64,000 bases of DNA from a virus (IMGVR_UViG_3300020429_000539:396263-460262); one strand, 5' to 3'; counted from the first letter of the stretch, positions 19,379-54,558 are shown. A program made the numbers and translations. Notes: generated from the letters alone by a model not told the origin.

Positions 19379-20354
19379 TATAGAGCTTTTCCTTGGTTCT
19401 TCCGTTGAGGTTCTGAGGAAAGAATTTGCCAGCGAGAGCGTTCATTCCATCATAACCAGTCCGCCTTATTACGGGCAAAGAGATTACCATAGCGATGACC
19501 AAATAGGCAACGAAAGCACGCTAGAGGGTTATCTTGATAACTTGTGCGATGTTTTTGATGAGTGTCATCGCGTTCTGCGAGACGACGGAACGCTCTGGGT
19601 TAATCTTGGCGACAAAGGGGAGAAGGGCAATGAACTCAATGTCCCCTTTTTGTTTGCGGAAGAGATGAAGAAGCGAGGATGGTATCAGCGAAGGTGGTTC
19701 CCTTGGCTCAAGCGGAATGGAATACCGCGTGGCGGCAATAATCGTCCGCATGACAATCTCGAAGTCATCTTTATGTTTGCGAAGAGGCCCAGAAACTATT
19801 ATTACGATCAGTTGTCTGCTAAAGAAGCAGCAGGATTGACAACTCGTAACTTCCGCAATGGAGATACTGTTCTTCTTGATCCCGACCCTGATTTCTGGGT
19901 CTTTGATGTATTGACTCGCAAGAACGCCTCAGAACACTTCGCTACGTTCCCTCCACAGTTGGCGGAGATAATGATGCGAGCATCTACAAGCGACTACGGT
20001 GTTACGAAGACAGGAGAACAGATTGGTCGTCTTTTTGAGAAGAAAAGATATGCTACTCGGCCTGGCACGAATGCAAAAAAGGATGAGTCAGGTATGGCTT
20101 TTCGTGATTCAGGACGACACATCACAGAAGTCAAACATCTTGGATGGGACACGATAGAAGGCGAAGAGGTAGGAAAACCAATCGTGTTAGACCCGTTCAG
20201 TGGTATGGCAACGGTAGGCGTAGTCTGCATCAATCATGGCAGAGCATATCGTGGGATAGAAGTCAATGCAGACTACTTAGAAGAAAGCCGGCGGAGACTT
20301 GAAGAGGAACTTAAAAATGCCACCAAGCACGAGCCGGATTTGTTTGCCAGTTGA
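19356..20354 (+). CDS. Orphan DNA amino-methyltransferase (beta class, with insertion)
   Basis: ITSPPYYGQRDY, LWVNLGD, HFATFP, VLDPFSGMATVG; ends HEPDLFAS. Confidence 0.92.
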   Translation: MTSLKKNDIELFLGSSVEVLRKEFASESVHSIITSPPYYGQRDYHSDDQIGNESTLEGYLDNLCDVFDECHRVLRDDGTLWVNLGDKGEKGNELNVPFLFAEEMKKRGWYQRRWFPWLKRNGIPRGGNNRPHDNLEVIFMFAKRPRNYYYDQLSAKEAAGLTTRNFRNGDTVLLDPDPDFWVFDVLTRKNASEHFATFPPQLAEIMMRASTSDYGVTKTGEQIGRLFEKKRYATRPGTNAKKDESGMAFRDSGRHITEVKHLGWDTIEGEEVGKPIVLDPFSGMATVGVVCINHGRAYRGIEVNADYLEESRRRLEEELKNATKHEPDLFAS

Positions 20355-21093
20355 TGAACTGCTTGATAAACACAAGGGGCAGATGGCCTTTATTCTTGGC
20401 GCGGGCCCCTCACTTCGTATGCATGATATGTCTGCGCTAGATGATTACGTTACATTTACTGTTAATAGTTCGATCGTCAAAAAGCCAGATTGCGATTACT
20501 TTGTCACGGATGATTCTGCGTCTGCAAACTGGTCTTGGTTTCGCAATACAGCCGTAGAGAGTAAATGCACGAAGTTTTTGCATCGAGCGAAGCTCGCTGA
20601 GAGAACCTATTTCTTTCGCGAAGATGAAGTTATTCTTTATGACCATGTATCGCAGCATAGTCCTGATTTCGATCCTAAATCTGAAGAAGGCTACGAACTA
20701 ACTAAAGATGGCTATGTCGTTGCATCTAGAACTTCTGTTGGCAGCGCTCTGCATATTGCGTGGCTGATGGGATGCGACCCGATTGTTCTATTAGGTTGCG
20801 ATGCTTGTTACACAGACAATAAGAGATACTTCTGGCAGTTCGATGGTGAGCCTCGCCCTTGCAGGACCGACTCTCGTGTGGTAAGGTATCAGCCCAATCG
20901 ACCTAGCGTGGACAATCAGAAAGTGGATTTGCATTGTTTGGAGTTTTGTAAATACTGGGACCGAATAGCTGCTGCTAACCCAGAGACGCAGAAACGAGTT
21001 CTATACGTCTCAGACCATGGTATCGTCAAATCTTTTCCCAAGACGACGATGCAGCAGGTTTTGAGAGATTTTGGCGATAGGACTATAACATGA
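20317..21093 (+). CDS. Maf/DUF115 (MptE-like) putative ulosonic-acid transferase 1
   Basis: KHKG..AFILGAGPSL, FTVNSS, DYFVTDD, ALHIAWLMGCDPIVLLGCD. Confidence 0.75.
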   Translation: MPPSTSRICLPVDELLDKHKGQMAFILGAGPSLRMHDMSALDDYVTFTVNSSIVKKPDCDYFVTDDSASANWSWFRNTAVESKCTKFLHRAKLAERTYFFREDEVILYDHVSQHSPDFDPKSEEGYELTKDGYVVASRTSVGSALHIAWLMGCDPIVLLGCDACYTDNKRYFWQFDGEPRPCRTDSRVVRYQPNRPSVDNQKVDLHCLEFCKYWDRIAAANPETQKRVLYVSDHGIVKSFPKTTMQQVLRDFGDRTIT

Positions 21094-21800
21094 CAACAAC
21101 ACTGCCTTCATATACTAACTTTATAGATTCTCACTGTGGAGAGACTGCTTTCATTGTTGGCGCGGGCACGAGTCTCAAGGATGTTGACCTTAGTTTCATC
21201 CATGATCATGTAGTCTTTTCCGTCAACTCATCTATTTTGTTGATGCCATGGCAAAGAGGCGACAGCCGCAAGAGATACTGGGTTTCGAACGATTCAGGCG
21301 TGATGGCTTGGGATTATTGGAAGCTTGTTCTGAACTCCAAGTCGAACAAGGTAGTTCGTGATAGCTGGTCATCTTTATATGACAAATTTGATACAACAGA
21401 TTTTTATGAGTTTAAGCCAAGGCCAACTTCGGAAGATGTAGTTCGGCCAAACGATACTGGTTTGGCTTACTGCTCAAGTGTCCCGTCTTCTCTTGATTTG
21501 GCGATACAGGCTGGATGTAGCAGGGTCTATCTTCTTGGTGTTGACCAGTATGCACAGAACGGCAAGAGCCACTATTGGCAGTATTGGCCGCGAGAACGTC
21601 AGCCTAAGCGCGGGCTATCTTCCCAGCCAAACAGTATGGACAATCAGCGATACGCCTTTGGTTACAACAATAAAGCGTATCCTGCATTGCTTGATTTTGC
21701 AATGTACAAGAACTGTCTCGTATATAACTGCAACCCGCTTAGCCGTGTAGACTGTTTTGAGAAGATCAGTATTGAAGATGTAAGAGATGAGTTTTCATGA
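21090..21800 (+). CDS. Maf/DUF115-like putative transferase 2
   Basis: AFIVGAGTSL, FSVNSS, LDLAIQAGCSRVYLLGVD, YNCNPLS. Confidence 0.75.
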   Translation: MTTTLPSYTNFIDSHCGETAFIVGAGTSLKDVDLSFIHDHVVFSVNSSILLMPWQRGDSRKRYWVSNDSGVMAWDYWKLVLNSKSNKVVRDSWSSLYDKFDTTDFYEFKPRPTSEDVVRPNDTGLAYCSSVPSSLDLAIQAGCSRVYLLGVDQYAQNGKSHYWQYWPRERQPKRGLSSQPNSMDNQRYAFGYNNKAYPALLDFAMYKNCLVYNCNPLSRVDCFEKISIEDVRDEFS

Positions 21801-22504
21801 TGAAAATGGAAGACTATCACAATAAACATATAGGCAAGATAGCTTGCATATTGGGGGCAGGCCCATCGCTTAGGCATTTCGATATCGAGATGTTTGATGA
21901 CCGTTTTGTGATGTTCTGTGTAAACTCATCTATTGCAAAGTTGCCAGAGACAGATTATTATGTTAGCGACGATAACGGAATAATGTTCTGGAACTATTAT
22001 CGAGAATATATCGTGCCCTCAAAATGCATGAAGTTTTTGTATGGCAAGAAGCTTGAACGGTTTGCAAAACATATTCCCGAAGACAAGAAAGTCTATTACG
22101 ACCATATGAGTTGGTGTTCCAAGAGCAAGAGCAATATCAATCTCACAGACAATCCTAATGCCCCTCTCATCGGAGCAAGAACTTCGTTAGCTACTTCGTT
22201 ACATATTGCTTACATCATGGGTATTCGTAAGTTTATACTATTTGGATGTGATTGCCAAAAAGAGGAAGATAAGCGTTATTTTTGGGAGTTTCCAGGAGAG
22301 GCTCACGTATACCCTATCATACCAGAAATCACTGAGGCTAAATATCTACAGGAAGCTCAAAGTCATTTTGATGACTTCAAGACTTATTGGAAAGCATTCG
22401 AAGAATGTAATAGAGACAAGGTAGAAATTATCAACTGCTCTGATGGTGTTCTTGATACGTTTCCAAGGATGTCAGTAGAAGAGGCTATAGATAAGCTGGG
22501 GTAA
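21797..22504 (+). CDS. Maf/DUF115-like putative transferase 3
   Basis: ACILGAGPSL, FCVNSS, SLHIAYIMGIRKFILFGCD, IINCS. Confidence 0.75.
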   Translation: MMKMEDYHNKHIGKIACILGAGPSLRHFDIEMFDDRFVMFCVNSSIAKLPETDYYVSDDNGIMFWNYYREYIVPSKCMKFLYGKKLERFAKHIPEDKKVYYDHMSWCSKSKSNINLTDNPNAPLIGARTSLATSLHIAYIMGIRKFILFGCDCQKEEDKRYFWEFPGEAHVYPIIPEITEAKYLQEAQSHFDDFKTYWKAFEECNRDKVEIINCSDGVLDTFPRMSVEEAIDKLG

Positions 22505-22507
22505 GAT

Positions 22508-23269
22508 ATGTTGAACGGTAAGCGGGTTATTGGAATCATACCAGCCCGAGCAGGTTCGAAAGGAGTCAAAGGCAAGAATTTCCGCTCTATTTATGGCAGA
22601 CCGCTTATCGATTGGTCTATTAATGCGTCAGTATATAGCAGCATCATAGATACTACAGTAGTAAGCACAAACTGCCCCCATGTCGAATCTTGTTGCAAAA
22701 CAAATGTAGCATTTAGTAGATGGCATTATTGGGGGGATAGTCCAAATGGTAAAGCTAACTTGAAGTTCCATCTTTACTGTGTGCCTCGTCCTGAAGAGCT
22801 TTGCACTGATGAAGCCCCGACTGAGCCTGCGATGATTCATGCTATTGACTACATGAAAGAAGAGCATGGTGTTGAGTATGGATATGCAGTTTTGTTGCAA
22901 CCCACTTCTCCTGCTCGTCCTTCTGGTCTTATTGATAGATGTCTAAAAAAGATGGAAGAGGGTTTCGATAGCGTGATGACCGTTTCTTCTCATACTCCCT
23001 TTTTCTGGCGCGTGCGCGCCGGACAAGCGATTCCTGATTATGACCCGAACAATCGACCTCGTAGGCAGGACATACCCGATGAAGATATAATGTATCATGA
23101 TAATGGGAACCTTTATGCCGTTTCTGTCGATAACCTGAGAAGGAAGGGCCGAATTGGAGATAACCCTTGCCTTTACGAAACGACTCATTTCGAATCGTTG
23201 CAGATAGATATAGAGGATGATTTTGTCATGCTTGAATCTCTCGCTCAGCATTATGGAGGTTTCCTGTGA
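22508..23269 (+). CDS. neuA: CMP-nonulosonate synthetase (acylneuraminate cytidylyltransferase)
   Basis: IIPARAGSKG..GKN, LLQPTSP.R, RRQD, NG.LY, QIDIEDDF. Confidence 0.93.
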   Translation: MLNGKRVIGIIPARAGSKGVKGKNFRSIYGRPLIDWSINASVYSSIIDTTVVSTNCPHVESCCKTNVAFSRWHYWGDSPNGKANLKFHLYCVPRPEELCTDEAPTEPAMIHAIDYMKEEHGVEYGYAVLLQPTSPARPSGLIDRCLKKMEEGFDSVMTVSSHTPFFWRVRAGQAIPDYDPNNRPRRQDIPDEDIMYHDNGNLYAVSVDNLRRKGRIGDNPCLYETTHFESLQIDIEDDFVMLESLAQHYGGFL

Positions 23270-24135
23270 AAAACTATACTAAGCCCAAAGTTATAGCTGA
23301 AATCGGCTGTTGTCATTTAGGTAAGTTCGATAGAGCTAAAGAGCTTATCAGTCTTGCTAAGCTTTGCGGCGCTGATTATGTTAAGCTTCAAAAGCGGAAT
23401 CCGGATGAATCCGTTCCAGAGAGCATCAAGCATAAGCCTCACCCTAATCAGATGTTTGCTTACGGCGACACGTATCTTGAGCATAGACAGAATCTTGAGC
23501 TTCCCATTGAAGACCATGTAAAACTCAAGGCTTATTGCGAGGAGATAGGCATTGGTTATTCGACATCAGTGTGGGACATGACATCCGCCCGCGAGGTTGT
23601 CGCTATGAATCCTGACTTCATTAAAGTTCCAAGCGCCTGCAATCAAGACTGGGAGATGATGAACTACTTGAGAGATTCTTATAGGGGCGATCTACATCTT
23701 TCTACTGGCATGACTACGGCAGAAGAGATGTCCGAGCTTTGTGCTTGGATAGCCCATAAAAATGTCAAGGAACGAGTTGTTCTTTACCATTGCACGAGCA
23801 AATACCCATGCCCATTTGAAGACCTGCATTTATTAGAGATAGAGTCTTTATCTGTTCGTTATCGTGGCAGTCCTATTCGTATTGGCTTTAGTAATCACGG
23901 TAAAGGTATTGCCGCAGATGTTGCCGCATATACGCTTGGAGCAGAATGGATTGAGAGGCACTTTATCGACGACCGTATGGTTCGACACACGGATGCCTCA
24001 GCAAGTCTTGAGCCACAGGGCTTGTCAAAGCTAGTGCGAGATTTGAACGCAGTTTATAGGGCTCTAGACCATCGACCGGCACAGATGGATGCCGATGAGC
24101 AGGCGCAAAGAGACAAACTAAAAGTTATCAAATAA
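23266..24135 (+). CDS. neuB: Nonulosonate (KDN/Neu5Ac-9-P-type) synthase, no SAF domain
   Basis: VIAEIG..H.G, GAD.VKLQKR, IKVPSA, STGM, HCTSKYP, GFSNH, WIERHF. Confidence 0.93.
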   Translation: MKNYTKPKVIAEIGCCHLGKFDRAKELISLAKLCGADYVKLQKRNPDESVPESIKHKPHPNQMFAYGDTYLEHRQNLELPIEDHVKLKAYCEEIGIGYSTSVWDMTSAREVVAMNPDFIKVPSACNQDWEMMNYLRDSYRGDLHLSTGMTTAEEMSELCAWIAHKNVKERVVLYHCTSKYPCPFEDLHLLEIESLSVRYRGSPIRIGFSNHGKGIAADVAAYTLGAEWIERHFIDDRMVRHTDASASLEPQGLSKLVRDLNAVYRALDHRPAQMDADEQAQRDKLKVIK

Positions 24136-24147
24136 CAGAGGTAGCGA

Positions 24148-24627
24148 ATGAATATTAGGATGATAGTTACAGACGTAGATGGCACGTTGACTGATGGCCG
24201 TTATTTTGTAAGCGAGTCGGGTAACGTTATAAAAGCTTTTCATACCAGAGATTTTTGGGCGCTACGAAGGGCCAGGGAAGAAGGCATCGAAACATTTATG
24301 TTGACTTCGGCAACGGATAGATGTGCTGATGAGAAATCGCAAACAACAGGCATTCCTCTTGTTAGCGCATCTACAAGTAAGGCAGCCGACCTTAAGATGA
24401 TTGCTGAAGAAAAAGGCATACCACTTGAGCAGGTAGCTTATATAGGCGATGCAGAGAACGACATTGCGGCTATGGAACTCTGCGGTTTTACCGCATGTCC
24501 CGCTGATGCAGTCCAAGAGGTAAAACAGGTCTCCAATATTGTTACGGATGCAAAAGGAGGCAATGCTGTTGTATATGAAGTTGTGCGATACATCTTCGAT
24601 AAGCAGGAGCTTAGTTGGACAGAATGA
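24148..24627 (+). CDS. KdsC/KDN-9-phosphate phosphatase-like HAD
   Basis: TDVDGTLTDG, F..RD, YIGD..ND, ACPADA, GG.AV.E. Confidence 0.9.
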   Translation: MNIRMIVTDVDGTLTDGRYFVSESGNVIKAFHTRDFWALRRAREEGIETFMLTSATDRCADEKSQTTGIPLVSASTSKAADLKMIAEEKGIPLEQVAYIGDAENDIAAMELCGFTACPADAVQEVKQVSNIVTDAKGGNAVVYEVVRYIFDKQELSWTE

Positions 24628-25679
24628 CAATACAGATTATCCATCTACTACCTAATCGTTTTCCATATGGCGCATATGCCATGTTGGACGAGCTTTACTA
24701 TGCTTTGAATAAATACTATGGCGATGAGATAGAACAGAAGGTTATGTATCTCTATGGTCGTAGTGACCCAACGCCTGAGCATTTTAAGATACCTGCTGAG
24801 CATACGGATATTAAGTTCTTACGCAGAACAATCGTCAAAGAACATACCAATCCGGTCGTTTTCTATCATAAGTTGTCTGCTACAGATTGTAAAGATGTTT
24901 CAAAGACGCTGCACAAGAAGGCCCCCTTTGCAATCATCAATCATACAGCATCAAATACATTCAAGGGCATTGCTCCATGCGATACTCTTGTGTGCGTATC
25001 GAAGCAGATGTATAAGGCCGCTCGTAAGCGGCTTCCTTCTTACAAGCTGGCAAAGATTCGGAATGGTGTTAATGCTTGTCGCTATGAAGATATACAGCCG
25101 TATAAGCCAGGTCAGGTTAGGGATTATTTTGCAACTGGCAGATTGAACAACTTCAATAACTGTAAGCATCCTAGAGACTGGATTACCTATGTCAAAACGG
25201 TCAACCTAGCTAAACCGTTGTGGCATGACTACATCGGTAACGGCGCTCATTTTAAGCATGCGCAGAACTATGCATCAAAGCGGTTTAGGCGACCGACACA
25301 GAACGTTGTGAATCTTCCAGGTAGAATCGATGATTTTGAGCGTAAGATTAGCTACATCAAGCGCTGGGATGCCTTCTTGTATGAGATACCAGGAACCGAA
25401 GGTACGAGCATGGCTCTGCTCGAAGCTCTAGCTTGTGGAGTGCCGGCAATCATCAACAATAGGTATGGCAACAAGGAAATCATTACTTCTGGCGTCAATG
25501 GCTTTGTCTATGATGACCGTCGAGAAGCTATGCGAATTATGAATGATTTGATTCGTCGTCCTGACAGGCTTGACGATCTAAAGCGCAGCACGAAGCGAAA
25601 CTTCTTGGAAAATTTGGATGCAAAACACATGGCTGCAAATTACTATGAGTTAGCGAAGGGACTAGCTAAGGGTGGCTGA
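24624..25679 (+). CDS. GT-B (GT4-like) glycosyltransferase
   Basis: IRNGV, EGTSMALLEALACGVP, G..EII..GVNG. Confidence 0.88.
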   Translation: MTIQIIHLLPNRFPYGAYAMLDELYYALNKYYGDEIEQKVMYLYGRSDPTPEHFKIPAEHTDIKFLRRTIVKEHTNPVVFYHKLSATDCKDVSKTLHKKAPFAIINHTASNTFKGIAPCDTLVCVSKQMYKAARKRLPSYKLAKIRNGVNACRYEDIQPYKPGQVRDYFATGRLNNFNNCKHPRDWITYVKTVNLAKPLWHDYIGNGAHFKHAQNYASKRFRRPTQNVVNLPGRIDDFERKISYIKRWDAFLYEIPGTEGTSMALLEALACGVPAIINNRYGNKEIITSGVNGFVYDDRREAMRIMNDLIRRPDRLDDLKRSTKRNFLENLDAKHMAANYYELAKGLAKGG

Positions 25680-26463
25680 AAAGTTTTCCATATTGACGAC
25701 ATCATATAACCACACTCCATGGCTTAGGGAGTGGGCCGACGCTTTGCTATGTCAGTCATACTCTGATATTGAGGTTGTCTTTGTGGATGATGCATCAAAG
25801 CTTGATGATTACAAGACTGCCCACTCTTTCGAACCAGAATTCAAGGCCAAAGGTATCGACCTCAAGATCAAGCGGCTTAATAAGAACGTAGGATGCGCAA
25901 CGGCCTACCTGCATGCTTTAAGAATGGCAACCGGAGACTATTTTGGCGTAGTTGACGCGGATGATGTTCTTCTTCCTCATGCGGTAGATGATATCATGCG
26001 TCTTTATGTCATGCACCCCCATATTGGTTGGATTTACACGCAGTTTAGTTGGTGTAACAGAAATCTAAGTAAATGTAGAACAGGATTTTGTCAAGCTCCC
26101 CCAAAGGGTAAGAATATGCTTACGGCTGAGTTGGGTATTGTGCGTCATTGTTACTCGCATTGGAGGACGTTTTCTAGGCGAGTTCCTGATTTAGAATCAA
26201 TCTTGTGTAAAGGAAGAAAGGTTTCTGTTGACAAATATATGGGTTATCGACTCGAAGAACTCTCTAGGGGCATGTTCTATGACAAAATTTGTTACCAGTA
26301 TCGAGGAGACCTCAAGCAGGGCGTAACCAAGCAATATAACTCGCTGCAAGCTTGGAAAGATGTTCGAGCCGACGCCATGGGCCGACGACGAAGGCTGAAG
26401 ATACGAAAGGTTTACCCTATTCAGAGGCATAAGCCGTTGCCATCGCAGAAAGGTTTGAAATGA
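25672..26463 (+). CDS. GT2 glycosyltransferase
   Basis: SILTTSYN, FVDDAS, ATGDYFGVVDADD. Confidence 0.88.
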   Translation: MAEKFSILTTSYNHTPWLREWADALLCQSYSDIEVVFVDDASKLDDYKTAHSFEPEFKAKGIDLKIKRLNKNVGCATAYLHALRMATGDYFGVVDADDVLLPHAVDDIMRLYVMHPHIGWIYTQFSWCNRNLSKCRTGFCQAPPKGKNMLTAELGIVRHCYSHWRTFSRRVPDLESILCKGRKVSVDKYMGYRLEELSRGMFYDKICYQYRGDLKQGVTKQYNSLQAWKDVRADAMGRRRRLKIRKVYPIQRHKPLPSQKGLK

Positions 26464-27140
26464 AACACGTATCGCTACCAGATTTTCTTGATATCATTGA
26501 ATATGATTTTGATACCGAGACTTTGAAAGACTACAAAGCTATTGGCGATAAGACTGCTATTCGAGAAATGAAGGGCAAGAAATATCGGCGCAACTATGAG
26601 CGAGGTATTTTAATGTCAGCGCTTGCGGTCAAGTTTGAGCGAAAGCGTCTATTGGAAATAGGAACCGGACGCGGCTATGTAGCAGCTTGTGTAGAGCAAA
26701 TGTCCGACGTTGATCATATTGCCACAGTTGACCGCTCTTCGTCAGAAGATGCTCGAAAGCTTATCAAGCAATGCGGTATTGATACTTCAAATATTGAGTT
26801 TATCAAGGGCAATGCTAATAAGATGAAACCTTCAGATTTCGCAGGTCGTTTTGATTTCTTCTTTATTGATGGCCAGCATGATGGACCTTCGGTCCAAGCA
26901 AACTACGCTCTATGTCAAGCCCTCGCTGAACCCAAGTCGATTGTTGTGTTTGATGATTACCGAAATAAGTTTTCATCTATCAAGAAAGTGATAGACAAAA
27001 TGAGGCTTAGAAACGCCTATCTTGTTCATACGGATGGTTGGTACATCGAAAATGTTTGCATCAAACAGGCTAAAGATGCCGATTATGTTAAGAATGGCCG
27101 AGAACACGGTTCGGGCATGGTTGTGTGTTTTGAGGACTGA
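26460..27140 (+). CDS. Class I SAM methyltransferase (Methyltransf_24-like)
   Basis: LLEIGTGRG, FDFFFIDGQH, VVFDDY. Confidence 0.85.
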   Translation: MKHVSLPDFLDIIEYDFDTETLKDYKAIGDKTAIREMKGKKYRRNYERGILMSALAVKFERKRLLEIGTGRGYVAACVEQMSDVDHIATVDRSSSEDARKLIKQCGIDTSNIEFIKGNANKMKPSDFAGRFDFFFIDGQHDGPSVQANYALCQALAEPKSIVVFDDYRNKFSSIKKVIDKMRLRNAYLVHTDGWYIENVCIKQAKDADYVKNGREHGSGMVVCFED

Positions 27141-27142
27141 GC

Positions 27143-27889
27143 TTGAAAGTTTCTGTACTAACAACTTGCGCCAATTACGATACTCTTATTGGACAGGCTA
27201 TCCATAGTGTTGCGCAACAGAACTATGATGGCGAAATTGAGATGATTGTCGTAGATGATTGCAGCCAGGACCGCTCGTGGAAGAAGCTACTAAAATATGA
27301 GAAGAAAAACGATTTTCTAACTATTCATAGAAATCCGAAGCGACTATATTGCTCATCGGCATACGGAGAAGCCCTAAAAAGGGCAACAGGCGATATTTGC
27401 TGTATATTAGATGGTGATGATGCCTTGTTGCCTCATTCTATTTCCGAGCTTGTGCGTATATATCAAGAGAATCCTGATGTTCTTTTTATCTATACCCAGC
27501 ATTATTCTTGCGATCCGGAACTTGGCCGTAGAAAGCGAGGAATAAGCAGGATGCCCCATATCAATGAGAGTTTACTTGATTCTTTTCTGAAGGGGAGGGC
27601 TCATTGCTATTCTCATTGGCGAACCTTTAGGACTATTGCCAGAGACAAAGGAGAGCTATTCAAGCCTGGTCTAAAATATGGCGTAGACAAATATCTCGGC
27701 TTCAAACTAGAAGAAATTGGAAAGGGTGGATTCTATGATGTACCGCTTTATCTTTATCGCAAGCATAAGCAAAATATGACGCATACCTCTGGAGGAAGGC
27801 AAAGACCTACGATTATCAGGCAAGCCAAAGCTATCCATGCCAATAGGAAAGCAAATAATATACTGCCAAAAGGAATCAAACAACTATGA
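27143..27889 (+). CDS. GT2 glycosyltransferase (paralog of 25672)
   Basis: IVVDDCSQD, ATGD..CILDGDD; shares HCYSHWRTF and VDKY.G..LEE with 25672. Confidence 0.88.
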   Translation: MKVSVLTTCANYDTLIGQAIHSVAQQNYDGEIEMIVVDDCSQDRSWKKLLKYEKKNDFLTIHRNPKRLYCSSAYGEALKRATGDICCILDGDDALLPHSISELVRIYQENPDVLFIYTQHYSCDPELGRRKRGISRMPHINESLLDSFLKGRAHCYSHWRTFRTIARDKGELFKPGLKYGVDKYLGFKLEEIGKGGFYDVPLYLYRKHKQNMTHTSGGRQRPTIIRQAKAIHANRKANNILPKGIKQL

Positions 27890-38740: not shown

Positions 38741-38754
38741 ACTACGGAGTCGTC

Positions 38755-39720: not shown

Positions 39721-39722
39721 GC

Positions 39723-42392: not shown

Positions 42393-42393
42393 T

Positions 42394-46756: not shown

Positions 46757-47744
46757 AGTAGGTATTAACGGCTTCGGACGAATAGGCAGGGTGTGCATGC
46801 GCATTTTGCTTGCTAGCGATGATTTTGAAGTTGTTGCCATCAATGATCCTGTAAGCACAGATAACTTGTGCTATCTTCTTAATTTTGATTCCCATTATGG
46901 TAGAATACCAGAATTTGACGCGCAGGGAAATTTCTTGATACGAGACAATATCAAGATACCAGTTCATCATGAGCTAGACATTGCCAAGGTAGACTGGAAC
47001 GGTGCAACCGTTGTAATAGACGCTTCTGGTGTAACTGAGAATGTTTATAACGCACGCAATCTTCCCGAGCAGATTACGAGTATTGTAACTCATTCTCCCA
47101 AAGACGGAGTAGATAGTTATATCGTGATGGGCGTAAACGATGCTGAATACAAAGATTCGCACAAGGTTATTTCAAGTAGCATTTGCGATGTAAACGGTGC
47201 GGCACAAGTTATAAAGCCTCTTGACGAAAAGTATGGCATCGAGAATGGTTTTGTCACGACGCTGCATCCTTGGCTGTCATATCAGAATCTTATTGATGGA
47301 CCTGTAGAAAACCAAAGCAATCCCGGCCATTCATGGCCTGATTACTCCTTGGGCAGGTCGTCAGTCGGCACGATGATACCAAAGAACACGAGCTTGATTC
47401 CTGCTCTAGACAACGTGATACCTGAAATTAGCAAGAGAGTTGATGCTATTTCTTTTCGGACTCCTACTTCAATTGTGTCAAGCGCAGACATGACCCTTAG
47501 TCTTAGGTCAGATTTCGATCTAGAAGAAGTTATAGATTTTCTACGAGGTTTGCGTTCAGAATACATCAAGGTCAACGAGCGACATCTTGTTGGTATGGAC
47601 TATTTAGCCATGGATGAAGCTGTGGCTATTGATTTGCAGTGGGTTAGAAAGATTGGTCCGATGCTGCACCTTGTTATTTGGTATGACAATGAATGGTCGT
47701 ATTGTTCGAATACTGTCAAGCTTGCAAGAAAGGTTGGTTCATGA
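46749..47744 (+). CDS. Divergent GAPDH/erythrose-4-P dehydrogenase-like enzyme
   Basis: VGINGFGRIGR, VVAIND, DS..G, catalytic motif ISSSICDVN (canonical SNASCTTN), WYDNEW.Y. Confidence 0.85.
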   Translation: MIKVGINGFGRIGRVCMRILLASDDFEVVAINDPVSTDNLCYLLNFDSHYGRIPEFDAQGNFLIRDNIKIPVHHELDIAKVDWNGATVVIDASGVTENVYNARNLPEQITSIVTHSPKDGVDSYIVMGVNDAEYKDSHKVISSSICDVNGAAQVIKPLDEKYGIENGFVTTLHPWLSYQNLIDGPVENQSNPGHSWPDYSLGRSSVGTMIPKNTSLIPALDNVIPEISKRVDAISFRTPTSIVSSADMTLSLRSDFDLEEVIDFLRGLRSEYIKVNERHLVGMDYLAMDEAVAIDLQWVRKIGPMLHLVIWYDNEWSYCSNTVKLARKVGS

Positions 47745-48484
47745 GTATAGCATCTTTGTTAATAGGCAAGAAAAACAGTACAGGGGTTCCAGGCAAGAAC
47801 GTAAGACTCATTAACGGAGTTCGTTCAGCCGAGTATGCTTATCGTGCTTCGGAATATAGCAAGCTAATACAGCACCGCTTTGTGTCTACCGATTGCGGCA
47901 GAATTCAGTCTATGGGCAGGCAGCATGGCTGGTCGATCATTGACCGACCAAGCGAGCTTGCGCAGCCAGAGACGCTTACCGAGGATGTCTTAAGCCATGC
48001 TCTTGAGTTCATGGATAGCGAGCTTCCTGAGCCGCCAGAAATCATTGTGCTGCATTTCTGCAACACACCCGCTATCGACCCCGTATTGATTGACGAAGGC
48101 ATACAGACGCTTCTCGATGAGCCTGAATGGAGTTCAGTGTTCTCGCTTTGTAAATTTGATATGTTTAGCCCTGTTCGCGCTCAAAAGGTTATAGATGGCG
48201 AGGTCATGCCATTTGTAGACCCCAAGCACCTTCCAGAGGCAAACTCTTTGCGGAACAGTCAGGGTGCTTGTTACTTCTTGGATTTCTCTGTCCAAGTTCT
48301 TCGTCGCGAGTGTTTCGAAAGTATGGATCGAACCGATACTATCTTTAAGTGGATGGGCAAAAAGCCCAAAGCCCTCATTCGAGACGCGAGAGTCTTCGAT
48401 ATCGATGAAGAGTGGCAGCTAGGAGTGGTAGAGGAGTGGGTCAAGAAACATGCTCAAAGTAGTAATACCGGATCACATCGTTGA
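47741..48484 (+). CDS. Second cytidylyltransferase (NeuA/KdsB-like, divergent)
   Basis: GKKNSTGVPGKN, VSTDC, DRP.ELA, FDIDEEWQ. Confidence 0.85.
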   Translation: MSIASLLIGKKNSTGVPGKNVRLINGVRSAEYAYRASEYSKLIQHRFVSTDCGRIQSMGRQHGWSIIDRPSELAQPETLTEDVLSHALEFMDSELPEPPEIIVLHFCNTPAIDPVLIDEGIQTLLDEPEWSSVFSLCKFDMFSPVRAQKVIDGEVMPFVDPKHLPEANSLRNSQGACYFLDFSVQVLRRECFESMDRTDTIFKWMGKKPKALIRDARVFDIDEEWQLGVVEEWVKKHAQSSNTGSHR

Positions 48485-49361
48485 TGATACAGAAGTTGAA
48501 AATCAAGTCTTTGGCAGTGATGCAGAGATAACTGCCTACCGTCAGCCACCTGATTCATTAGAATACCTACGAGATTTTGATGCCGTTATGCATTGGCATC
48601 ATTTTCGTGTCAATGAAGAAACGCTTGCTTACATGGATAAATGCAAGTGTGTTGTTCGTTTTGGAGCGGGCTTGGATAACGTAAACCAGGAACTCTGTAA
48701 GCAACGAGGTATACAAGTATTCAATGTTCCTGACTATGGCGTAGATGAGGTTGCTGACCATACTCTTGCTTTGATTCTCGGTCTCTCTCGTAGTATTGTA
48801 GCGCATCAGAATGACCATAGAGCGTGGGTTGACCAATACGAGCAGCCTAATATACGCTTGCAGGGCAAGACCGCAGGTATTGTTGGTCTTGGACGAATCG
48901 GCTTGGCTGTAGCTCGGCGATTGCAGGCCTTTGGAATGAACATCTTGTTCTATGACCCGTACGTCGAAGAGGGTATCGAGAAGAGTCTTGGTTTTCAGAG
49001 AACAAATAATCTAAGCAAGATAGCTGCTGTAAGCTCAGTTATCACGTTGCATGTTCCTCTAACAGAAGAAACTCATCATATGATCAATGATGAGTTCTTA
49101 CATTATGTAAACAAGGCTCCTATATTTGTCAATACTTGCCGAGGCGGTGTTGTGGATTATGATGCTCTTATTGAGGCTCACAAGGCGGGGAAGTTTCAGG
49201 GTCTAGGTATAGACGTATTCGAGACGGAGCCGCCTACAAATTTGTATAGAGACAATCGCATTATATATACGCCTCATTCTGCTTTTTATTCAGATGAATC
49301 TATTGTCGAGCTTCGCAGTAAAGCGGCGAGAAAGTGTTTGCAATGCCTGAAAAAACTCTAA
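48450..49361 (+). CDS. D-2-hydroxyacid dehydrogenase (CtBP/SerA-like)
   Basis: RFGAGLDNV, NVPDYG..EVADH, GIVGLGRIG, VNTCRG.VVD, DVFETEP, TPHSA. Confidence 0.92.
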   Translation: MLKVVIPDHIVDDTEVENQVFGSDAEITAYRQPPDSLEYLRDFDAVMHWHHFRVNEETLAYMDKCKCVVRFGAGLDNVNQELCKQRGIQVFNVPDYGVDEVADHTLALILGLSRSIVAHQNDHRAWVDQYEQPNIRLQGKTAGIVGLGRIGLAVARRLQAFGMNILFYDPYVEEGIEKSLGFQRTNNLSKIAAVSSVITLHVPLTEETHHMINDEFLHYVNKAPIFVNTCRGGVVDYDALIEAHKAGKFQGLGIDVFETEPPTNLYRDNRIIYTPHSAFYSDESIVELRSKAARKCLQCLKKL

Positions 49362-50089
49362 AACAAAAACTTGCCAATAGGGAAAAGCTCGTCGGAACAT
49401 GGAGCGTTATTCCTTCGCCCGTTGTAGCTGATGCTCTAGCTTCGTACCTGGACTTCGTTATACTAGATATGGAGCATGGTCCAGTTAGCTTTGAAACAGC
49501 ACAGAACATGCTTATTGCTCTTCAGTGTAAGGGCTGTCACGGAATGATTCGTGTTCCTGATTACTCGGAATCAAATATACTGAAAGCTTTTGATATCGGC
49601 GCTGAAGGCATTATTGTTCCTCAAATCAAGCAGCATGATGCAGTTTGGGATATAATTAGTCGCTCTAAATACCCTCCCGCAGGTTGTCGAGGGTTATCTC
49701 CATACACCCGCGCGGGACGCTATGGCTCTCGTGTTGATCATATGAGTAAATCAAATGAAGAATCTGTAACGAGTGTTATCATAGAAAACAAAACTGCTTT
49801 GGATTCTCTGGATTATATCATCAAGGATCATACAGTAGAATTAATCTATTTTGGTATCTACGATATTTCTTTGGCCCTTGGTCATCCTGGCGATATTTCG
49901 CATAAGGAAGTTAGAGACACAATAGAACAAGGTATCAAAAAAGTCGCTGATGCTGGTATTTCTGTAGGGGGATTTGTTCATACCAAAGAGGAGATGGATA
50001 TGTATGGCGATATAGGTATGAACTTTTTTGCTTATGGAGTTGATGCTCACATCTTACAGAGAGGCTATGATGGCTTACAAGGGAATTAG
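49343..50089 (+). CDS. HpcH/HpaI-family class II aldolase
   Basis: DFVILDMEHG, IRVP, D.GA.GIIVPQI, YPP.G.RG, IIEN, YFGIYDIS. Confidence 0.9.
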   Translation: MPEKTLKQKLANREKLVGTWSVIPSPVVADALASYLDFVILDMEHGPVSFETAQNMLIALQCKGCHGMIRVPDYSESNILKAFDIGAEGIIVPQIKQHDAVWDIISRSKYPPAGCRGLSPYTRAGRYGSRVDHMSKSNEESVTSVIIENKTALDSLDYIIKDHTVELIYFGIYDISLALGHPGDISHKEVRDTIEQGIKKVADAGISVGGFVHTKEEMDMYGDIGMNFFAYGVDAHILQRGYDGLQGN

Positions 50090-50714
50090 ACATCGCAATC
50101 TAATCATAGTCGGAGCGGGTAAGACTATTGTAGACAATGATTCGAAGCTAAAAGATTTCATTGTAGATAATGATTGTAAGGTCATCGGCATCAACTACAT
50201 GACCAATTTTTGTCATCCCGACTACCATCTATGGACCAATCGTCAGCGACTAAAAGCTTTCGGTCAATGTATAGATGCTGCTAAGTCAAGATTGATGTTT
50301 AACTACCGCATGCCAAAAGACATTATTCGACGCTTCCATAAAGGGCCTTATATCAAAGTGGTCTATTCTGATGATGACCGTTTCGCTGAGCGATTTGCAA
50401 TACGCGAAGACCATATTAAGGGCCGATTCAGGACAGCGGGCGTTCTCGCGATAGCGATTGCGCATCTCATGGAGGCAGAGAATATTTGGGTTGCAGGTAT
50501 GGATGGGTATACGCTTCATGCCCACGATGATGTTCAATCAGGCAAAGCGACGCAGCATTGTTATGGGACAGGTCATACAGACGATGTTTCGTGGGAAGAC
50601 GGTGCTGCGAAGGACGCGGCAGTTCAGTCATGTTTAGATAACTTATCAAAGTATGTCAGTTTCAAAATAATCACACCCACGAAGTTTGAGAACCACTATG
50701 CAGGAATACTATAA
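50070..50714 (+). CDS. Maf/DUF115-like putative transferase 7
   Basis: LIIVGAGKTI, VIGIN, PDYH, HLMEAENIWVAGMDGY. Confidence 0.65.
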   Translation: MAYKGIRHRNLIIVGAGKTIVDNDSKLKDFIVDNDCKVIGINYMTNFCHPDYHLWTNRQRLKAFGQCIDAAKSRLMFNYRMPKDIIRRFHKGPYIKVVYSDDDRFAERFAIREDHIKGRFRTAGVLAIAIAHLMEAENIWVAGMDGYTLHAHDDVQSGKATQHCYGTGHTDDVSWEDGAAKDAAVQSCLDNLSKYVSFKIITPTKFENHYAGIL

Positions 50715-51333
50715 GAACTGGTGTTTTGACTTCGATGGAGTTATTCTTGATTCTAACGGCGTCAAACACGCATCGTTTTTGCAAGTTTGCCAGAAGTACG
50801 AGCCCGAGCATGCCTATGCTATGTTAGAAGTATTTAAGACTAATAGCGGCAAGTCGAGGTCTAAGATCATCGAAATAGCTGAGTCTGAAGTCGTAGGTCG
50901 TCCTATCGATAAAAGCGCTATCGAGCAAGAGTATTCTATATTATCTGACGAGCTAACTGCGCAATGCAAAGAGACAACCGGGCTTCGAGAATTTCTTGAT
51001 TCCATACCAAGAGATTGTAATAGGTTCATTATAACTGGTTCGGGTCAGATAAAAACAACTCAGATGTTAGGCGACAGAGGATTGTTGCCTTATTTTGATG
51101 CGGTTTATGGGGCTCCTGCTTCCAAGGTTGATGCATTCGCGAATTTACAAGTCAGAGGTTTTTTGGATGAGCCAACTGTGTTTATTGGCGATAGCAGATA
51201 CGATTATGAATCATCAGTAGGGTTCAATGTGGATTTTGTATTTATGAGCGACTTCACAGGGTTTGATAATTGGAAGTCGTTTTTTGACGATAAGAGTTGT
51301 AAGGTTATTCGCTGCCTTAGAGACCTGATGTGA
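50698..51333 (+). CDS. HAD-superfamily phosphatase
   Basis: FDFDGVILDSN, VFIGDS.YD. Confidence 0.88.
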   Translation: MQEYYKNWCFDFDGVILDSNGVKHASFLQVCQKYEPEHAYAMLEVFKTNSGKSRSKIIEIAESEVVGRPIDKSAIEQEYSILSDELTAQCKETTGLREFLDSIPRDCNRFIITGSGQIKTTQMLGDRGLLPYFDAVYGAPASKVDAFANLQVRGFLDEPTVFIGDSRYDYESSVGFNVDFVFMSDFTGFDNWKSFFDDKSCKVIRCLRDLM

Positions 51334-51343
51334 GGAGCATACT

Positions 51344-52186
51344 ATGAAAATAGCAGTTATTGGACATGGATATGTCGGAAAGGCCATGGCCGAGTTTTTT
51401 CAAGACCACTATGATCTCGTGGTAGTCGATACCAAATTCACGGGACCATCTTCAGTCAAAAACGAAGAGTTTGGTCGCAATCATCTATTTACTAATGATT
51501 TATGTGCTGCGAATGGCTGTGACTTGGTTGTTGTTTGCCTGCCTACCCCTCGCAGCGATGATGGCTCTTGTGATACGAGCCTAGTGGAATCGGCTATTCG
51601 TGACATCGATGCTGAGTTATTCCTTATTAAGTCAACGATCGAGCCAGGCACTACCGACCGCCTTAAAGAGGCAACTGGTAAGCGTATTGTTTTCTCACCT
51701 GAGTATTGTGGCGAGTCTAAATACTGGACAGAATACAAGTTTCATACTGATGTCAAAGAGACTCCTTGGTTTACTTTTGGTGGCGACCCAGAAGATACTG
51801 AGGCAATGGTTCGCTTCTTCATCAAGGTTGTTGGTCCAACAAAGACATACCACCAGACTGATACCCTTACTGCTGAACTCGCAAAGTATGTTGAGAATAC
51901 TTTTTATGCTATGAAAGTTACGTTCTGCTATGAAATCAACGAGTTGTGCGAGCGCATGGGTGTGGATTACTACAAGCTGCGAGAGGCATGGCTTCTTGAC
52001 CCGCGACTGAGCCCAATGCATACAGCAGTATTCCAAGAGAGCGAAAAGCCTTTCGGTGGGAAGTGCTTCCCTAAAGATGTGTCTGCAATTGCTCGATATG
52101 CTGAGAAGCTGGGTTATGATGCTAAGCTGATTCAGGAAATTTTGTTGTCCAATGACCGTATTGGAGAGCTTCGCAAAAATCGCTAA
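51344..52186 (+). CDS. UDP-glucose/GDP-mannose 6-dehydrogenase family (short, lacks C-terminal domain)
   Basis: IAVIGHGYVG, CLPTP, KSTI.PGTT, FSPE, AELAKY.EN, FGGKCFPKD. Confidence 0.9.
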   Translation: MKIAVIGHGYVGKAMAEFFQDHYDLVVVDTKFTGPSSVKNEEFGRNHLFTNDLCAANGCDLVVVCLPTPRSDDGSCDTSLVESAIRDIDAELFLIKSTIEPGTTDRLKEATGKRIVFSPEYCGESKYWTEYKFHTDVKETPWFTFGGDPEDTEAMVRFFIKVVGPTKTYHQTDTLTAELAKYVENTFYAMKVTFCYEINELCERMGVDYYKLREAWLLDPRLSPMHTAVFQESEKPFGGKCFPKDVSAIARYAEKLGYDAKLIQEILLSNDRIGELRKNR

Positions 52187-52198
52187 CGGGAAAAGCGA

Positions 52199-52888
52199 AT
52201 GTCCTGTCTTGAACTTGCCAAAAACATTGTTGTAGCAGGATATCCAAGATCAGGTACAAGCTGGCTAACCCGCTTGATCGCAGACTCTCTGCGATGCCCC
52301 ATCAACTCATACTATAACGGCAACAGGTTATGCTATAAGAATTCAGATGGCTTTGCTAATGATGTAAACCAGTTGGCTAGTTGTGTCCGTATAGATTATG
52401 CTCTGATGAAAACTCATTGCCATCCTCAAGTTGTGTTTACTGAAAACTCTGTTTTTGAAGCTAGTCGAGAACTAACAGTATTTATACACAGAGACCCTCT
52501 TGATGTGCTGGTATCTTGCATGCATTACTATAACACATCATTTGAAGATATGCTTCATAAAATGCAGCATGGTTACAGAGAAGTTTCAGGTTTTGATTAT
52601 ATCAGATATAGAAAAGACTGGTTATCCGAAAAGGTCATAGCAACTACTTATGAGAAGCTTTTGCAAAAAACAGACTGGGAGTTGCTTGCAATCATTCACA
52701 CTTTAGGATTTGTTGAAACTACGCTTGATGATGTTCAGAATGCTATTGAGCAACAGAGCTTTGCTTTTAAGAAAGCTTCAGGTATCAATGCCAACCATTA
52801 CCGAAAAGGACAGATAGGTTCTTATGTTGATGAGTTGTCAACAGAGCAAATCAATCGTGCTAGATGTTTTCTAGGTAAATATTCATGA
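52199..52888 (+). CDS. PAPS-dependent sulfotransferase
   Basis: GYPRSGTSW (5'-PSB), KTH, RDPLDVLVS (3'-PB), YEKL, RKG.IG. Confidence 0.9.
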   Translation: MSCLELAKNIVVAGYPRSGTSWLTRLIADSLRCPINSYYNGNRLCYKNSDGFANDVNQLASCVRIDYALMKTHCHPQVVFTENSVFEASRELTVFIHRDPLDVLVSCMHYYNTSFEDMLHKMQHGYREVSGFDYIRYRKDWLSEKVIATTYEKLLQKTDWELLAIIHTLGFVETTLDDVQNAIEQQSFAFKKASGINANHYRKGQIGSYVDELSTEQINRARCFLGKYS

Positions 52889-54558
52889 TTCTCGGAATAT
52901 TGCCACACGGACATGACCAGAACGTTGCCCTTTTGGACGACGATGGCTGTCCTGTAACAGTTTACGAATGGGAAAGACTGTTCGGCGAAAGGTATTGTCT
53001 AAGCTATAGTCCTTTTTCTTATAACTCTATGATGACAGAGTATCCGCGAAGCAAGCATATGCGACAAGCGGATGCGTTTGTAGATAGAACAGTTGATTTC
53101 TGGAATACGTATGCTAAAGACATAACTGCTGTGGCCCTATGCGCTACGGTCTTTGTCAAGGACCATTTATACATAGAGCATTGCCGCTGTCTTCTTCGAG
53201 TTCTACGGGAAAGATATGGTAATCATATACCGCAGCATCCGGTTTTGTTCAACCATCATGAGTGTCATGCATCGCTTGCTTTTTATGGTTCGCCCTTTGA
53301 GCAAGCTAAAGTATTCTCATATGATGGAACAGGTAATGATGGATTTACCAAATTCTATCATATGTCAGAGAATACGATAGACCATATCGCTGGCTATAAA
53401 GGCAGGTTTGGTCATTCTTATGATCTGCTTGGTCGCCGCATTGGTGATTATGATGAGTTTTGGCCTGTTCCTGCTATTTCAGGCCGTCTTATGGGCCTAA
53501 GCTCATACGGTAAGCTTGATGATAAGCTTTACAAAGAGGCCAAAGCGTTTTTTGAGTTTGTTTCGGAATACGTATGGCTTAATCCTCGCGGCTGGAAAGA
53601 GTTAATGGTGGAGTACGCTAAGTATAGCAAAAGCGATCAACCACACCTGTATCATCTTGGGCCATCAGACGGATGGTTAGCAAAGAACTACGTACATAGT
53701 TTTCAGCAAATGTGGACCGATAGAGCCATTGATCTTATCAAGCGTCATCTTGCAAAAAACGAGCCGTTATGTGTAACAGGTGGTTGTGCCATGAATGGTA
53801 TAACTAATCATGCTATCTTCAAAGAAGTATCAGACAACATTTACGTTCCACCAAATCCAGGTGATTGTGGCCTTGCGCTAGGGGCGGCTTTTGCATATCG
53901 CCAATGGTTTGAGCAGAAGCCACGTAAATATTTTGGACCTCTAAACCCTTATATCGGCGCACCTATCTTGGATATCAAAGATATTCAGAAGTACCGTGAC
54001 CGAGATGACTACAAGGGTAAGGTAACTATCAGAGAGATAGCAAAGCATATTGCGAATGGCAAGGTTTTTGGAGTTATTCAGGGAAATAGCGAAATAGGCC
54101 CCAGAGCGTTAGGCAATCGCTCGATTCTTGCAGATTGCCGCAAGAAAGATATCAAGGACCGTTTGAACAAGGAAGTCAAGTTTCGAGCCTGGTATAGGCC
54201 GTATGCGCCGGTCGTGCGACAGGAAGATGTAGATAGGTATTTTGAGTTCAATGCCGCTTCTCCATATATGTCGCAGGTTGTGAAAGTAAAAGATAAAGTG
54301 AAAGACAGTATCCCCGGCGTGACTCATGTCGATAATACAGCAAGGTTGCAGACAGTTACAAGACAACAGCATCGTTGGCTCTATGACCTGCTAACCGAGT
54401 ATGAAAAATCTGTAGGTGTAGGAGTACTATTGAACACTTCGTTCAATTCAAGAGGACGACCGATGGTCACAAAACTCAAAACTGCTTTCGATACTTTGGA
54501 CTCTACGGGACTAGATGGAGTGATTGTCGAAGGGAATGAGTTGTGGCTAAAAGTGTGA
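52885..54558 (+). CDS. O-carbamoyltransferase (NodU/CmcH/TobZ family)
   Basis: HD...AL, ER, HH.CHA, DGTG, LMGLSSYG, GGCAMNG, GDCGLALG, EIGPRALGNRSIL, THVD.TAR.QTV, LLNTSFN. Confidence 0.93.
   Translation: MILGILPHGHDQNVALLDDDGCPVTVYEWERLFGERYCLSYSPFSYNSMMTEYPRSKHMRQADAFVDRTVDFWNTYAKDITAVALCATVFVKDHLYIEHCRCLLRVLRERYGNHIPQHPVLFNHHECHASLAFYGSPFEQAKVFSYDGTGNDGFTKFYHMSENTIDHIAGYKGRFGHSYDLLGRRIGDYDEFWPVPAISGRLMGLSSYGKLDDKLYKEAKAFFEFVSEYVWLNPRGWKELMVEYAKYSKSDQPHLYHLGPSDGWLAKNYVHSFQQMWTDRAIDLIKRHLAKNEPLCVTGGCAMNGITNHAIFKEVSDNIYVPPNPGDCGLALGAAFAYRQWFEQKPRKYFGPLNPYIGAPILDIKDIQKYRDRDDYKGKVTIREIAKHIANGKVFGVIQGNSEIGPRALGNRSILADCRKKDIKDRLNKEVKFRAWYRPYAPVVRQEDVDRYFEFNAASPYMSQVVKVKDKVKDSIPGVTHVDNTARLQTVTRQQHRWLYDLLTEYEKSVGVGVLLNTSFNSRGRPMVTKLKTAFDTLDSTGLDGVIVEGNELWLKV

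Follow-up and report, generated by a model that had tools for sequence, protein, structure and literature searches.

The 43-gene glycan-building island described here lies in a 64,000-nt stretch of virus DNA, hereafter the window (IMGVR_UViG_3300020429_000539:396263-460262), and runs along its plus strand from position 20317 to 54558. The complete genome is called G000 (the window being G000:396263-460262), and positions refer to the window unless marked G000. With moderate confidence, and from gene content and order, we interpret the island as the variable tier of a two-tier cytoplasmic system with which the phage would glycosylate its own virion proteins. Giant fibre-like proteins are the most likely acceptors, and the glycan is likely anionic, capped with Kdn-type sugars, methylated, and sulfated. 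The virion was also the target favored in the initial annotation of the window, and the proposal gains support from conserved glycosyltransferase (GT) genes that bracket the fibre-like genes in the structural region. Of the 583 proteins called in the genome, the protein scan covered 288 outside the window and 72 inside it, with short open reading frames (ORFs) and 19 ORFs spanning locus edges set aside.

The carrier genome and its variable locus

G000 is a complete 488,051-bp record of an uncultured virus, with direct terminal repeats. PHROGs matches identify terminase, portal, maturation protease, major head, and tail-fibre genes, and a Pfam match identifies the tail tube; Pfam PF03237 did not pick up the terminase that PHROGs did. 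The record thus has the size (>200 kb) and the hallmark genes of a tailed dsDNA jumbophage, the viral origin presumed at the outset is confirmed, and a cellular chromosome is rejected. The major capsid protein is 54% identical to gp27 of Bacillus phage G, is matched at 69-100% by 80 retained IMG/VR loci, and has a distant homologue (26.8%) in the capsid protein of Mycobacteriophage Myrna. Replication and translation genes include split DnaE, DnaB, DnaG, RecA, gyrase, and tRNA synthetases; a DnaE query returned no viral loci. The runs containing G000 DNA are labelled marine metagenome, where labelled, and comparison of GyrB, TyrRS, and IF3 with 34 bacterial genomes gave no consistent host phylum. 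A chimeric assembly is unlikely, since contigs from several runs cover stretches of the island at mostly 99%+ identity: positions 12001-32000 are covered in 30, 30, and 29 of 30 bins by runs X8, X9, and X10, and positions 40001-60000 in 30, 30, and 29 of 30 bins by X7, X8, and X10, with X7 and X8 looking like a single data set. One contig (53227-55707) bridges the 3' edge of the island; among those listed for the two intervals compared, none bridges the 5' edge. Short contigs of RNA run X20 match 11 and 18 of 30 bins, island and flanks alike; they may derive from DNA and were not used.

The island is flanked by a UvrD-type helicase gene (16841-18799, plus strand; phrog_1967) and a gene (56701-58725, plus strand; phrog_13226, unnamed) that we take, from its sequence, to encode a topoisomerase I-like protein. 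All eight distinct relatives examined (G001, G002, G003/G004, G005, G009, G020, G070, and G072) have glyco-genes in this same interval, which spans from ~25 to ~80 kb and ends at the topoisomerase gene wherever the contig extends that far. Behind UvrD the relatives encode GTs, methyltransferases, NeuB, cytidylyltransferases, and sugar-nucleotide enzymes; for G020, G070, and G072 the island content was judged from BLAST against G000 only. The G001 interval holds 101 ORFs, some unrelated to glycans, and three NeuB genes. Counted as reciprocal best matches at 35% identity and 60% cover, the genes shared with the 43 of the island number 15 in G001, 2 in G002, 4 in G003/G004, 4 in G005, 13 in G009, 5 in G020, 9 in G070, and 15 in G072; flanking genes, compared in five relatives by one-way matches at the same level, have a match in 16-30 of 44 cases. 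On this comparison of order and content, the island is a clade-wide variable locus and not a one-off.

Its front module is the conserved part. Most relatives have a Maf-domain transferase, a CMP-synthetase, a short NeuB, and a KdsC-like phosphatase at this position. Among the best 25 of 46 viral loci found with the alignment of the first Maf gene (Maf1), several of them near-duplicate records, UvrD and NeuB both lie within 10 kb of the Maf1 match in 21, and the prevailing order is UvrD-(methyltransferase)-Maf-NeuA-NeuB-KdsC, an order that G002 lacks. Bacillus phage G has neither NeuB nor GT4 over cut-off, which shows that the system does not extend to its capsid lineage as a whole. Nor are such islands confined to the G000 clade, since a soluble cluster of another composition, encoding NeuB, five GT29, two GT25, one GT10, and two sulfotransferases, is present in the unrelated huge phage LR756508.1 (302778-343518).

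The predicted acceptor and competing targets

The membrane-segment test, a 19-residue Kyte-Doolittle mean applied to every island ORF, reached at most 1.57 over the 43 ORFs; with so low a maximum, no island protein is predicted to have a membrane segment, which bears out the earlier judgment by eye that multi-pass proteins are missing. Among the 374 ORFs in the intervals of the eight relatives (271 from six and 103 from two), none has more than one hydrophobic segment. The bacterial loci that hold the GAPDH-like cassette described below differ: with ORFs taken from crude calls, five of seven include a multi-pass ORF, and one of them (L186) has Wzx- and Wzy-type proteins. The expected absence of initiating and export machinery was borne out as well. 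The initiating phosphoglycosyl transferase family PF02397 was found in none of five clade genomes (control, 9 of 14; the WecA-type family was not searched), flippase PF01943 and ABC exporter PF01061 in none of the five, with positive controls, and polymerase/ligase PF04932 in none of eight records, with a positive control. G000 encodes eight multi-pass proteins, none inside the island, and an ABC pair that resembles the TauC/SsuC (sulfonate/nitrate) importer lies ~310 kb away. The island is therefore not a Wzx/Wzy- or ABC-dependent surface polysaccharide locus of the bacterial kind.

The link to the virion comes from a second set of GTs. G000 has a block of 1,100- to 3,300-aa ORFs bearing fn3, LamG, Kelch, and GH56-like domains; a GT4 gene, g442, separates the baseplate-region gene from the first of the giant fibre-like genes in all six relatives covered, and a GT2/GT4/GT2 trio, g451-453, follows the fibre block in all seven covered. 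The identity of these four genes among relatives (31-64%) equals that of the giant ORFs. The isolated-phage proteins closest to g442 are Streptomyces phage GTs (~26%), and g452 has no match among annotated phages. Ser/Thr-rich proteins, which the initial annotation proposed to look for elsewhere on the contig, were found in the structural region: g411-416 and g429 reach 19-25% Ser+Thr, versus a genome mean of 11.6%. A GT4 gene also lies within 8 kb downstream of the capsid gene in 24 of the 55 loci having at least 5 kb of downstream sequence. The G003 ORF at 430145 (2494 aa), between the capsid and tail-tube genes, has repeated GT2 domains and methyltransferase-like stretches, and the capsid-to-tail interval of G001 (533-548 kb) encodes a collagen-repeat protein, a GT9/methyltransferase/GT4 fusion, FkbM, a GT9 protein, and five LamG. 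Soluble phage GTs linked to structural genes are likewise the arrangement of phages Che8, Corndog, and Myrna, whose virion proteins are glycosylated (Freeman et al. 2023, cited in PMC12363180, PMC13313380, and PMC12619734).

In the scheme that we propose, conserved GT4 and GT2 enzymes of the structural module (G000 340738, 379811, 380585, and 381681, plus 297166 and 322030 [4 of 6 relatives]) would start glycan chains on Ser/Thr of structural proteins and lengthen them. NeuB would join phosphoenolpyruvate to a hexose-6-phosphate, the HAD phosphatase would strip the 9-phosphate, and NeuA would make the CMP donor, to be used by the stand-alone Maf-domain enzymes and the KpsC/S-like protein. A second 3-deoxy-2-ulosonate, built from pyruvate and a short aldehyde, may come from a cassette of GAPDH-like protein, dehydrogenase, aldolase, CMP-synthetase, and Maf protein. 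Gmd, the C-methyltransferase, and Ugd would provide uronic sugars as well as deoxy and branched ones, and the chain would be decorated by methyl-, sulfo-, and carbamoyltransferases. Exchange of genes at the locus could then produce serotype-like coats. More tentatively, this worldwide aquatic lineage of 450- to 550-kb phage-G-like genomes might possess a true glycocalyx, in which primed fibre and head proteins carry the product of an exchangeable, O-antigen-like locus of 25-100 genes, capped with self-made Kdn and with another ulosonic acid that may be new. If so, there would be virion "serotypes" and a tailed-phage counterpart of Mimivirus fibril glycans, made by the most elaborate phage glycosylation pathway described. 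If the virion is the target, sialic-acid-like, sulfated glycans would be obtainable from giant marine phages, whose serotype-like variation could affect adsorption, grazing, and decay.

Several points weigh against virion glycosylation. The assignment draws on gene context. The island belongs to the replication module, in an unbroken run of genes from RecA (11240) on, and 36 kb separate it from the end of the fibre block. The search for a late promoter serving the island found none; sigma-70 sites occur there at chance level only, and the two repeated upstream motifs of the phage do not appear in it, save for one in-gene match. The capsid-adjacent GT4 is missing in 31 of the 55 loci, and in G001 and G002. 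Beta-rich phage fibres are commonly Ser/Thr-rich, and the giant ORFs are assigned to the virion by position and by weak PHROGs and domain matches. The island Maf proteins correspond to the catalytic domain of the 632-aa Maf and nothing more, and so do not speak for protein acceptors. Finally, the authors who described comparable clusters in P-SSM2 (PMC1079782), jumbo cyanophages (PMC7824862), and pelagimyophages (PMC7029224) read them as changing host O-chains or surfaces, and the hypothesis of a host target is thus already published.

That hypothesis, remodelling of the host surface for serotype conversion or superinfection exclusion, is the most serious competitor, although we regard it as unlikely here. 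The enzymes would act on cytoplasm-facing lipopolysaccharide (LPS) core, lipid-linked units, or S-layer glycans and rely on host exporters. The enzyme families are typical of bacterial surface-glycan loci, in which the GAPDH-like cassette also occurs, GT9 and KpsC/S-like genes are present in relatives, and the coupling to replication genes suggests early or middle expression. However, the clade genomes searched yielded no initiating transferase, flippase, polymerase/ligase, or ABC2 permease; host flippases generally discriminate in favor of their own repeat unit, a preference hard to square with 12-14 foreign GTs; and the conserved GTs that bracket the fibre genes are left unexplained. Large phage glyco-clusters have been interpreted since 2005 as tools for changing the host surface. 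In this clade the conserved GTs linked to the fibres form one tier and the exchangeable donor and tailoring enzymes another, which makes the choice between virion and host testable with defined enzyme-acceptor pairs.

A free glycan or small glycoconjugate, cytoplasmic or released at lysis as decoy, matrix, or scaffold, or a set of sub-modules with different targets, seems decidedly improbable. The mosaic content of the locus (2-15 of 43 genes shared) and the presence of other glyco-loci in the genome would suit it, as would the secondary-metabolite roles that Iyer et al. propose for some cyanophage carbamoyltransferase clusters (PMC7824862). Against this, no polymerase or carrier system was seen, and a defined acceptor is what the fixed GT set beside the fibre genes suggests.

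The weakest proposal, that the sugars are added to hydroxymethyl-pyrimidine or a similar handle in phage DNA, is very improbable, as neither a C5-methyltransferase nor a deoxynucleotide hydroxymethylase that could make such a handle was found in G000. It would account for the position of the island among replication genes, next to a DNA methyltransferase, and for two ParB/Srx-like proteins within it, and LPS-enzyme-related phage GTs can put up to trisaccharides on 5-hydroxymethylcytosine (10.1101/2023.12.21.572611). G002 (279973-280491) also encodes a homologue of thymidylate synthase, divergent (42 bits) and possibly a hydroxymethylase, that was not seen in the other four genomes searched. 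The G000 ThyA is, however, canonical (417 bits) and the sole PF00303 match, a dUTPase is present, and no C5-methyltransferase (PF00145) exceeded the cut-off in five genomes. TET/JBP dioxygenase PF12851 was found in none of the five, in a search whose positive control was silent as well. Twelve of the 64 palindromic 6-mers are absent from the 488 kb (17-148 expected each), compared to none of the 4032 non-palindromic ones; relatives show the same depletion, and GCGC is absent from the 260 kb of G002 examined. Such depletion is expected for DNA exposed to restriction and so argues against a glycosylated genome, as do seven N6/N4-type methyltransferases in G000. The number of enzymes and the CMP-ulosonate donors exceed what the DNA glycans of 10.1101/2023.12.21.572611 involve, and the island does not belong with the C5-methyltransferase/5mYOX clusters described there. 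Palindrome avoidance also suggests that type II restriction systems abound in the hosts. Within 20 kb there are four genes for N6/N4 DNA methyltransferases (window 16-2322 and 19356-20354).

Predicted ulosonate chemistry and known counterparts

The front of the island consists of gene 1 (20317-21093; PF01973), a stand-alone Maf/GT42-like catalytic domain predicted to be a CMP-ulosonate transferase; two further Maf-like transferases, genes 2 (21090-21800; phrog_4603, local profile E 9e-52) and 3 (21797-22504; PF01973); gene 4 (22508-23269; PF02348), a NeuA-type CMP-ulosonate synthetase that is PseF-like below cut-off; gene 5 (23266-24135; PF03102, E 1e-62), a short NeuB, likely a Kdn-9-P-type synthase; and gene 6 (24148-24627), a KdsC/Kdn-9-P-phosphatase-like HAD protein. 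Genes 1, 4, 5, and 6 are the conserved core. The NeuB has 289 aa, lacks a SAF domain, and scores below the NCBIfam cut-offs for NeuB and PseI; the phosphatase scores 93.6 bits for KdsC and 90.2 bits for KDN-9-P phosphatase, both below cut-off. Its top PDB matches are 164-aa proteins labelled acylneuraminate cytidylyltransferase, which we take to be the Bacteroides Kdn-9-P phosphatase. No DegT aminotransferase (PF01041) was found in five clade genomes, and no UDP-GlcNAc 2-epimerase in the G000 island by Pfam, although the G002 island has one. The front module is thus likely a Kdn pathway, since a NeuB-type synthase, a 9-phosphate phosphatase, and a CMP-synthetase imply a phosphorylated route and co-occur without amino-sugar precursor genes, as in the CMP-Kdn pathway of Bacteroides thetaiotaomicron and Prymnesium parvum (PMC6200933). 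Unlike the enzymes of that pathway, those of the phage fall below all equivalog cut-offs, so that the product is deduced from the combination.

The predicted structure of gene 1 (pLDDT 94) aligns with residues 257-520 of Maf (5MU5), a flagellin nonulosonate transferase, over 211 residues (Z 18.1, rmsd 3.2, 13% identity); the next matches are MptE kinase (Z 12.2) and CstI and GT29 sialyltransferases (Z 8.6-9.2). Gene 1 therefore shares the catalytic fold of Maf and of GT42 CstI/CstII, and its place beside NeuA and NeuB favors a transferase. Unlike the 632-aa Maf, it is a stand-alone domain of ~250 aa; the island Maf proteins (215-258 aa) do not have the full ~600-aa multi-domain architecture, and with the catalytic domain only they need not modify proteins directly. 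PDB sequence searches with the Maf and ParB-like alignments gave no match.

The initial annotation posited two ulosonate pathways; ulosonic-acid chemistry is upheld, and a second 3-deoxy-2-ulosonate route is suggested from gene content only. Genes 35-40 form its cassette: a divergent GAPDH-like dehydrogenase (46749-47744; family scan and bacterial neighbourhoods), a second cytidylyltransferase (47741-48484; PF02348), a D-2-hydroxyacid dehydrogenase (48450-49361; PF02826), an HpcH/HpaI class II pyruvate aldolase (49343-50089; PF03328), a Maf-like transferase (50067-50714; local profile E 2e-15), and a HAD phosphatase (50698-51333; PF13419). The combination of pyruvate aldolase and CMP activation is what points to a second sugar acid. 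In 9 of 16 close bacterial loci of the GAPDH-like gene, a cytidylyltransferase and a 2-hydroxyacid dehydrogenase are nearby; the aldolase is present in one of the 16, and an FAA-hydrolase protein takes its place in two. In G001 the cassette occurs minus the GAPDH-like gene. The locus could also be a pool of small soluble ulosonate transferases together with an uncharacterised aldolase-based sugar-acid pathway.

By analogy, the island resembles several known systems. The glycosylation clusters of Megavirinae comprise 6-33 genes at a fixed locus and are linked to fibril glycans (Notaro et al. 2022, PMC10117803); like the island, they combine virus-encoded nucleotide-sugar pathways with GTs, vary in content by clade, make bacterial-type sugars, and lie between conserved genes, in their case a helicase and a thioredoxin-like gene. 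The island is such a fixed locus of variable donor pathways and GTs. The Megavirinae are, however, eukaryotic giant viruses whose fibril sugars, chiefly amino-sugars, have been measured, whereas G000 has the hallmark genes of a tailed phage and is no fibril-bearing member of the Mimiviridae, its 43 genes include CMP-ulosonate chemistry and no DegT aminotransferase, and the system is known from its genes; the likeness is functional only. The "LPS" clusters of P-SSM2 and the host recognition cluster of pelagimyophages are likewise large polymorphic blocks, with epimerases, nucleotidyltransferases, GTs, and methyl- and carbamoyltransferases in common (PMC1079782, PMC7824862, PMC7029224), and those of jumbo cyanophages resemble the island as a gene block (PMC7824862, PMC9123017). 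Large phage glyco-clusters being known, the earlier description as an "undescribed system" overstated the novelty. These phages differ in being T4-like, with 24 genes in two clusters in P-SSM2 and the pelagimyophage GTs inside a fibre island; G000 is phage-G-like, of a DnaE-type lineage, with the NeuA/NeuB/phosphatase/Maf core behind UvrD and a separate fibre GT set. Mycobacteriophages also apply their own soluble GTs to structural proteins of tailed virions (PMC12363180, PMC13313380, PMC12619734), but with few GTs, and the available parts of these sources mention no self-encoded donor pathways; the island has tens of enzymes and donor synthesis. The literature search, which extended to main texts and not to supplements, found no description of the locus in this clade. 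In the portion available, a 2026 huge-phage survey mentions GTs only as broadly distributed auxiliary genes (10.64898/2026.10.24.761521), and the main texts of PMC7162821 and PMC13037316, whose supplements may mention such genes, do not contain "glyco," "sugar," or "polysacchar."

Remaining island genes and other features of the genome

The unbroken, co-oriented gene run was as initially described, with intergenic gaps of -35 to +14 bp, and its third-position GC content (0.44) is like that of replication (0.45) and structural (0.43) genes. Immediately 5' of it, and overlapping gene 1, is an N6/N4 DNA methyltransferase gene (19356-20354, plus strand; phrog_67) found at the same place in many relatives. 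About 14 GTs had been proposed and 12-14 stand, 10 of them over Pfam cut-off: the GT4 genes 7 (24624-25679), 15 (30973-31884), and 28 (40894-41811), all PF00534, and 16 (31881-32738; PF13692/PF00534); the GT2 genes 8 (25672-26463), 10 (27143-27889), 12 (28902-29672), 23 (37338-38198), and 30 (42394-43329), all PF00535; and the GT-B gene 25 (38755-39720; PF13524). Weaker members are gene 14 (30344-30976), which is GT2-like (PF00535, E 0.009, sub-threshold), and gene 22 (36289-37341), a Capsule_synth (KpsC/KpsS-like) protein predicted to be an ulosonate transferase (Atlas 0.97, PF05159 clusters; weak PF07388). Genes 11 (27886-28905), GT-B-like, and 17 (32735-33556), DxD-bearing and GT-A-like, were so called by eye and have no library match; gene 11 has 30-32% homologues in the G070 and G072 islands.

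Seven Maf/DUF115-like proteins had been counted, of which four are firm (genes 1, 2, 3, and 39) and gene 13 (29650-30360; hhalign 47%, E 2e-4) is probable; genes 18 (33553-34206) and 20 (34843-35604), Maf-like by eye, are unsupported at hhalign probabilities of 0.4% and 0.8%. Six of seven proposed S-adenosylmethionine (SAM) methyltransferases are confirmed by Pfam, namely, genes 9 (26460-27140; PF13578), 19 (34190-34846; PF13489), and 29 (41811-42392; PF08241), the FkbM genes 21 (35597-36292) and 26 (39723-40424), both PF05050, and the NDP-sugar C-methyltransferase gene 31 (43326-44600; PF08484 and PF08421); gene 33 (44992-45741), methyltransferase-like by eye, has no match.

The two cytidylyltransferases and NeuB given above were called correctly at the outset, and so were the four remaining enzymes, all with Pfam matches: Gmd, the GDP-mannose 4,6-dehydratase of gene 34 (45734-46756; PF16363, E 5e-118); gene 41 (51344-52186; PF03721 and PF00984), a short Ugd-like nucleotide-sugar dehydrogenase of 280 aa with no match to the C-terminal UDP-binding domain and 68-76% identity in G070 and G009; the sulfotransferase gene 42 (52199-52888; PF00685); and the NodU/CmcH-type carbamoyltransferase gene 43 (52885-54558; PF02543 and PF16861). 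To these the present analysis adds the KdsC-like and second HAD phosphatases, the GAPDH-like and D-2-hydroxyacid dehydrogenases, and the HpcH aldolase. Further additions are two ParB/sulfiredoxin-like proteins, gene 24 (38198-38740; Atlas 0.95, GxHR motif) and gene 27 (40421-40897; model pLDDT 93, weak Srx/ParB fold matches at Z 4-5), and gene 32 (44600-44995), which has no match and no assigned family.

Other sugar genes of G000 include a double GT29 protein with three DXD GTs (228862-235128), a pair of Maf-like genes (261554-262893), and an epimerase with a GT15 mannosyltransferase-like gene (463675-465419). The structural region encodes a volactin-like actin homologue (G000 318002; 58-76% conserved in relatives), and elsewhere there are a PARP-WGR protein, TROVE/Ro60, RtcB, NAMPT, glutamine synthetase, a stand-alone GH56-like protein, and a histidine kinase with two response regulators. 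Two of 63 tRNA calls have a CTA anticodon (G000 40480 and 46542), and TAG is the stop codon of 60 of 458 G000 genes. Between 161 and 213 kb of G000, CCACATA[CG] stands ahead of ~60 small genes, often at a fixed 25 bases before the ATG, and all 36 G000 copies of AAGATGGGTG fall in this same stretch, many behind a GC hairpin; the region is a cassette array in which a likely phage promoter is accompanied by another repeated site.

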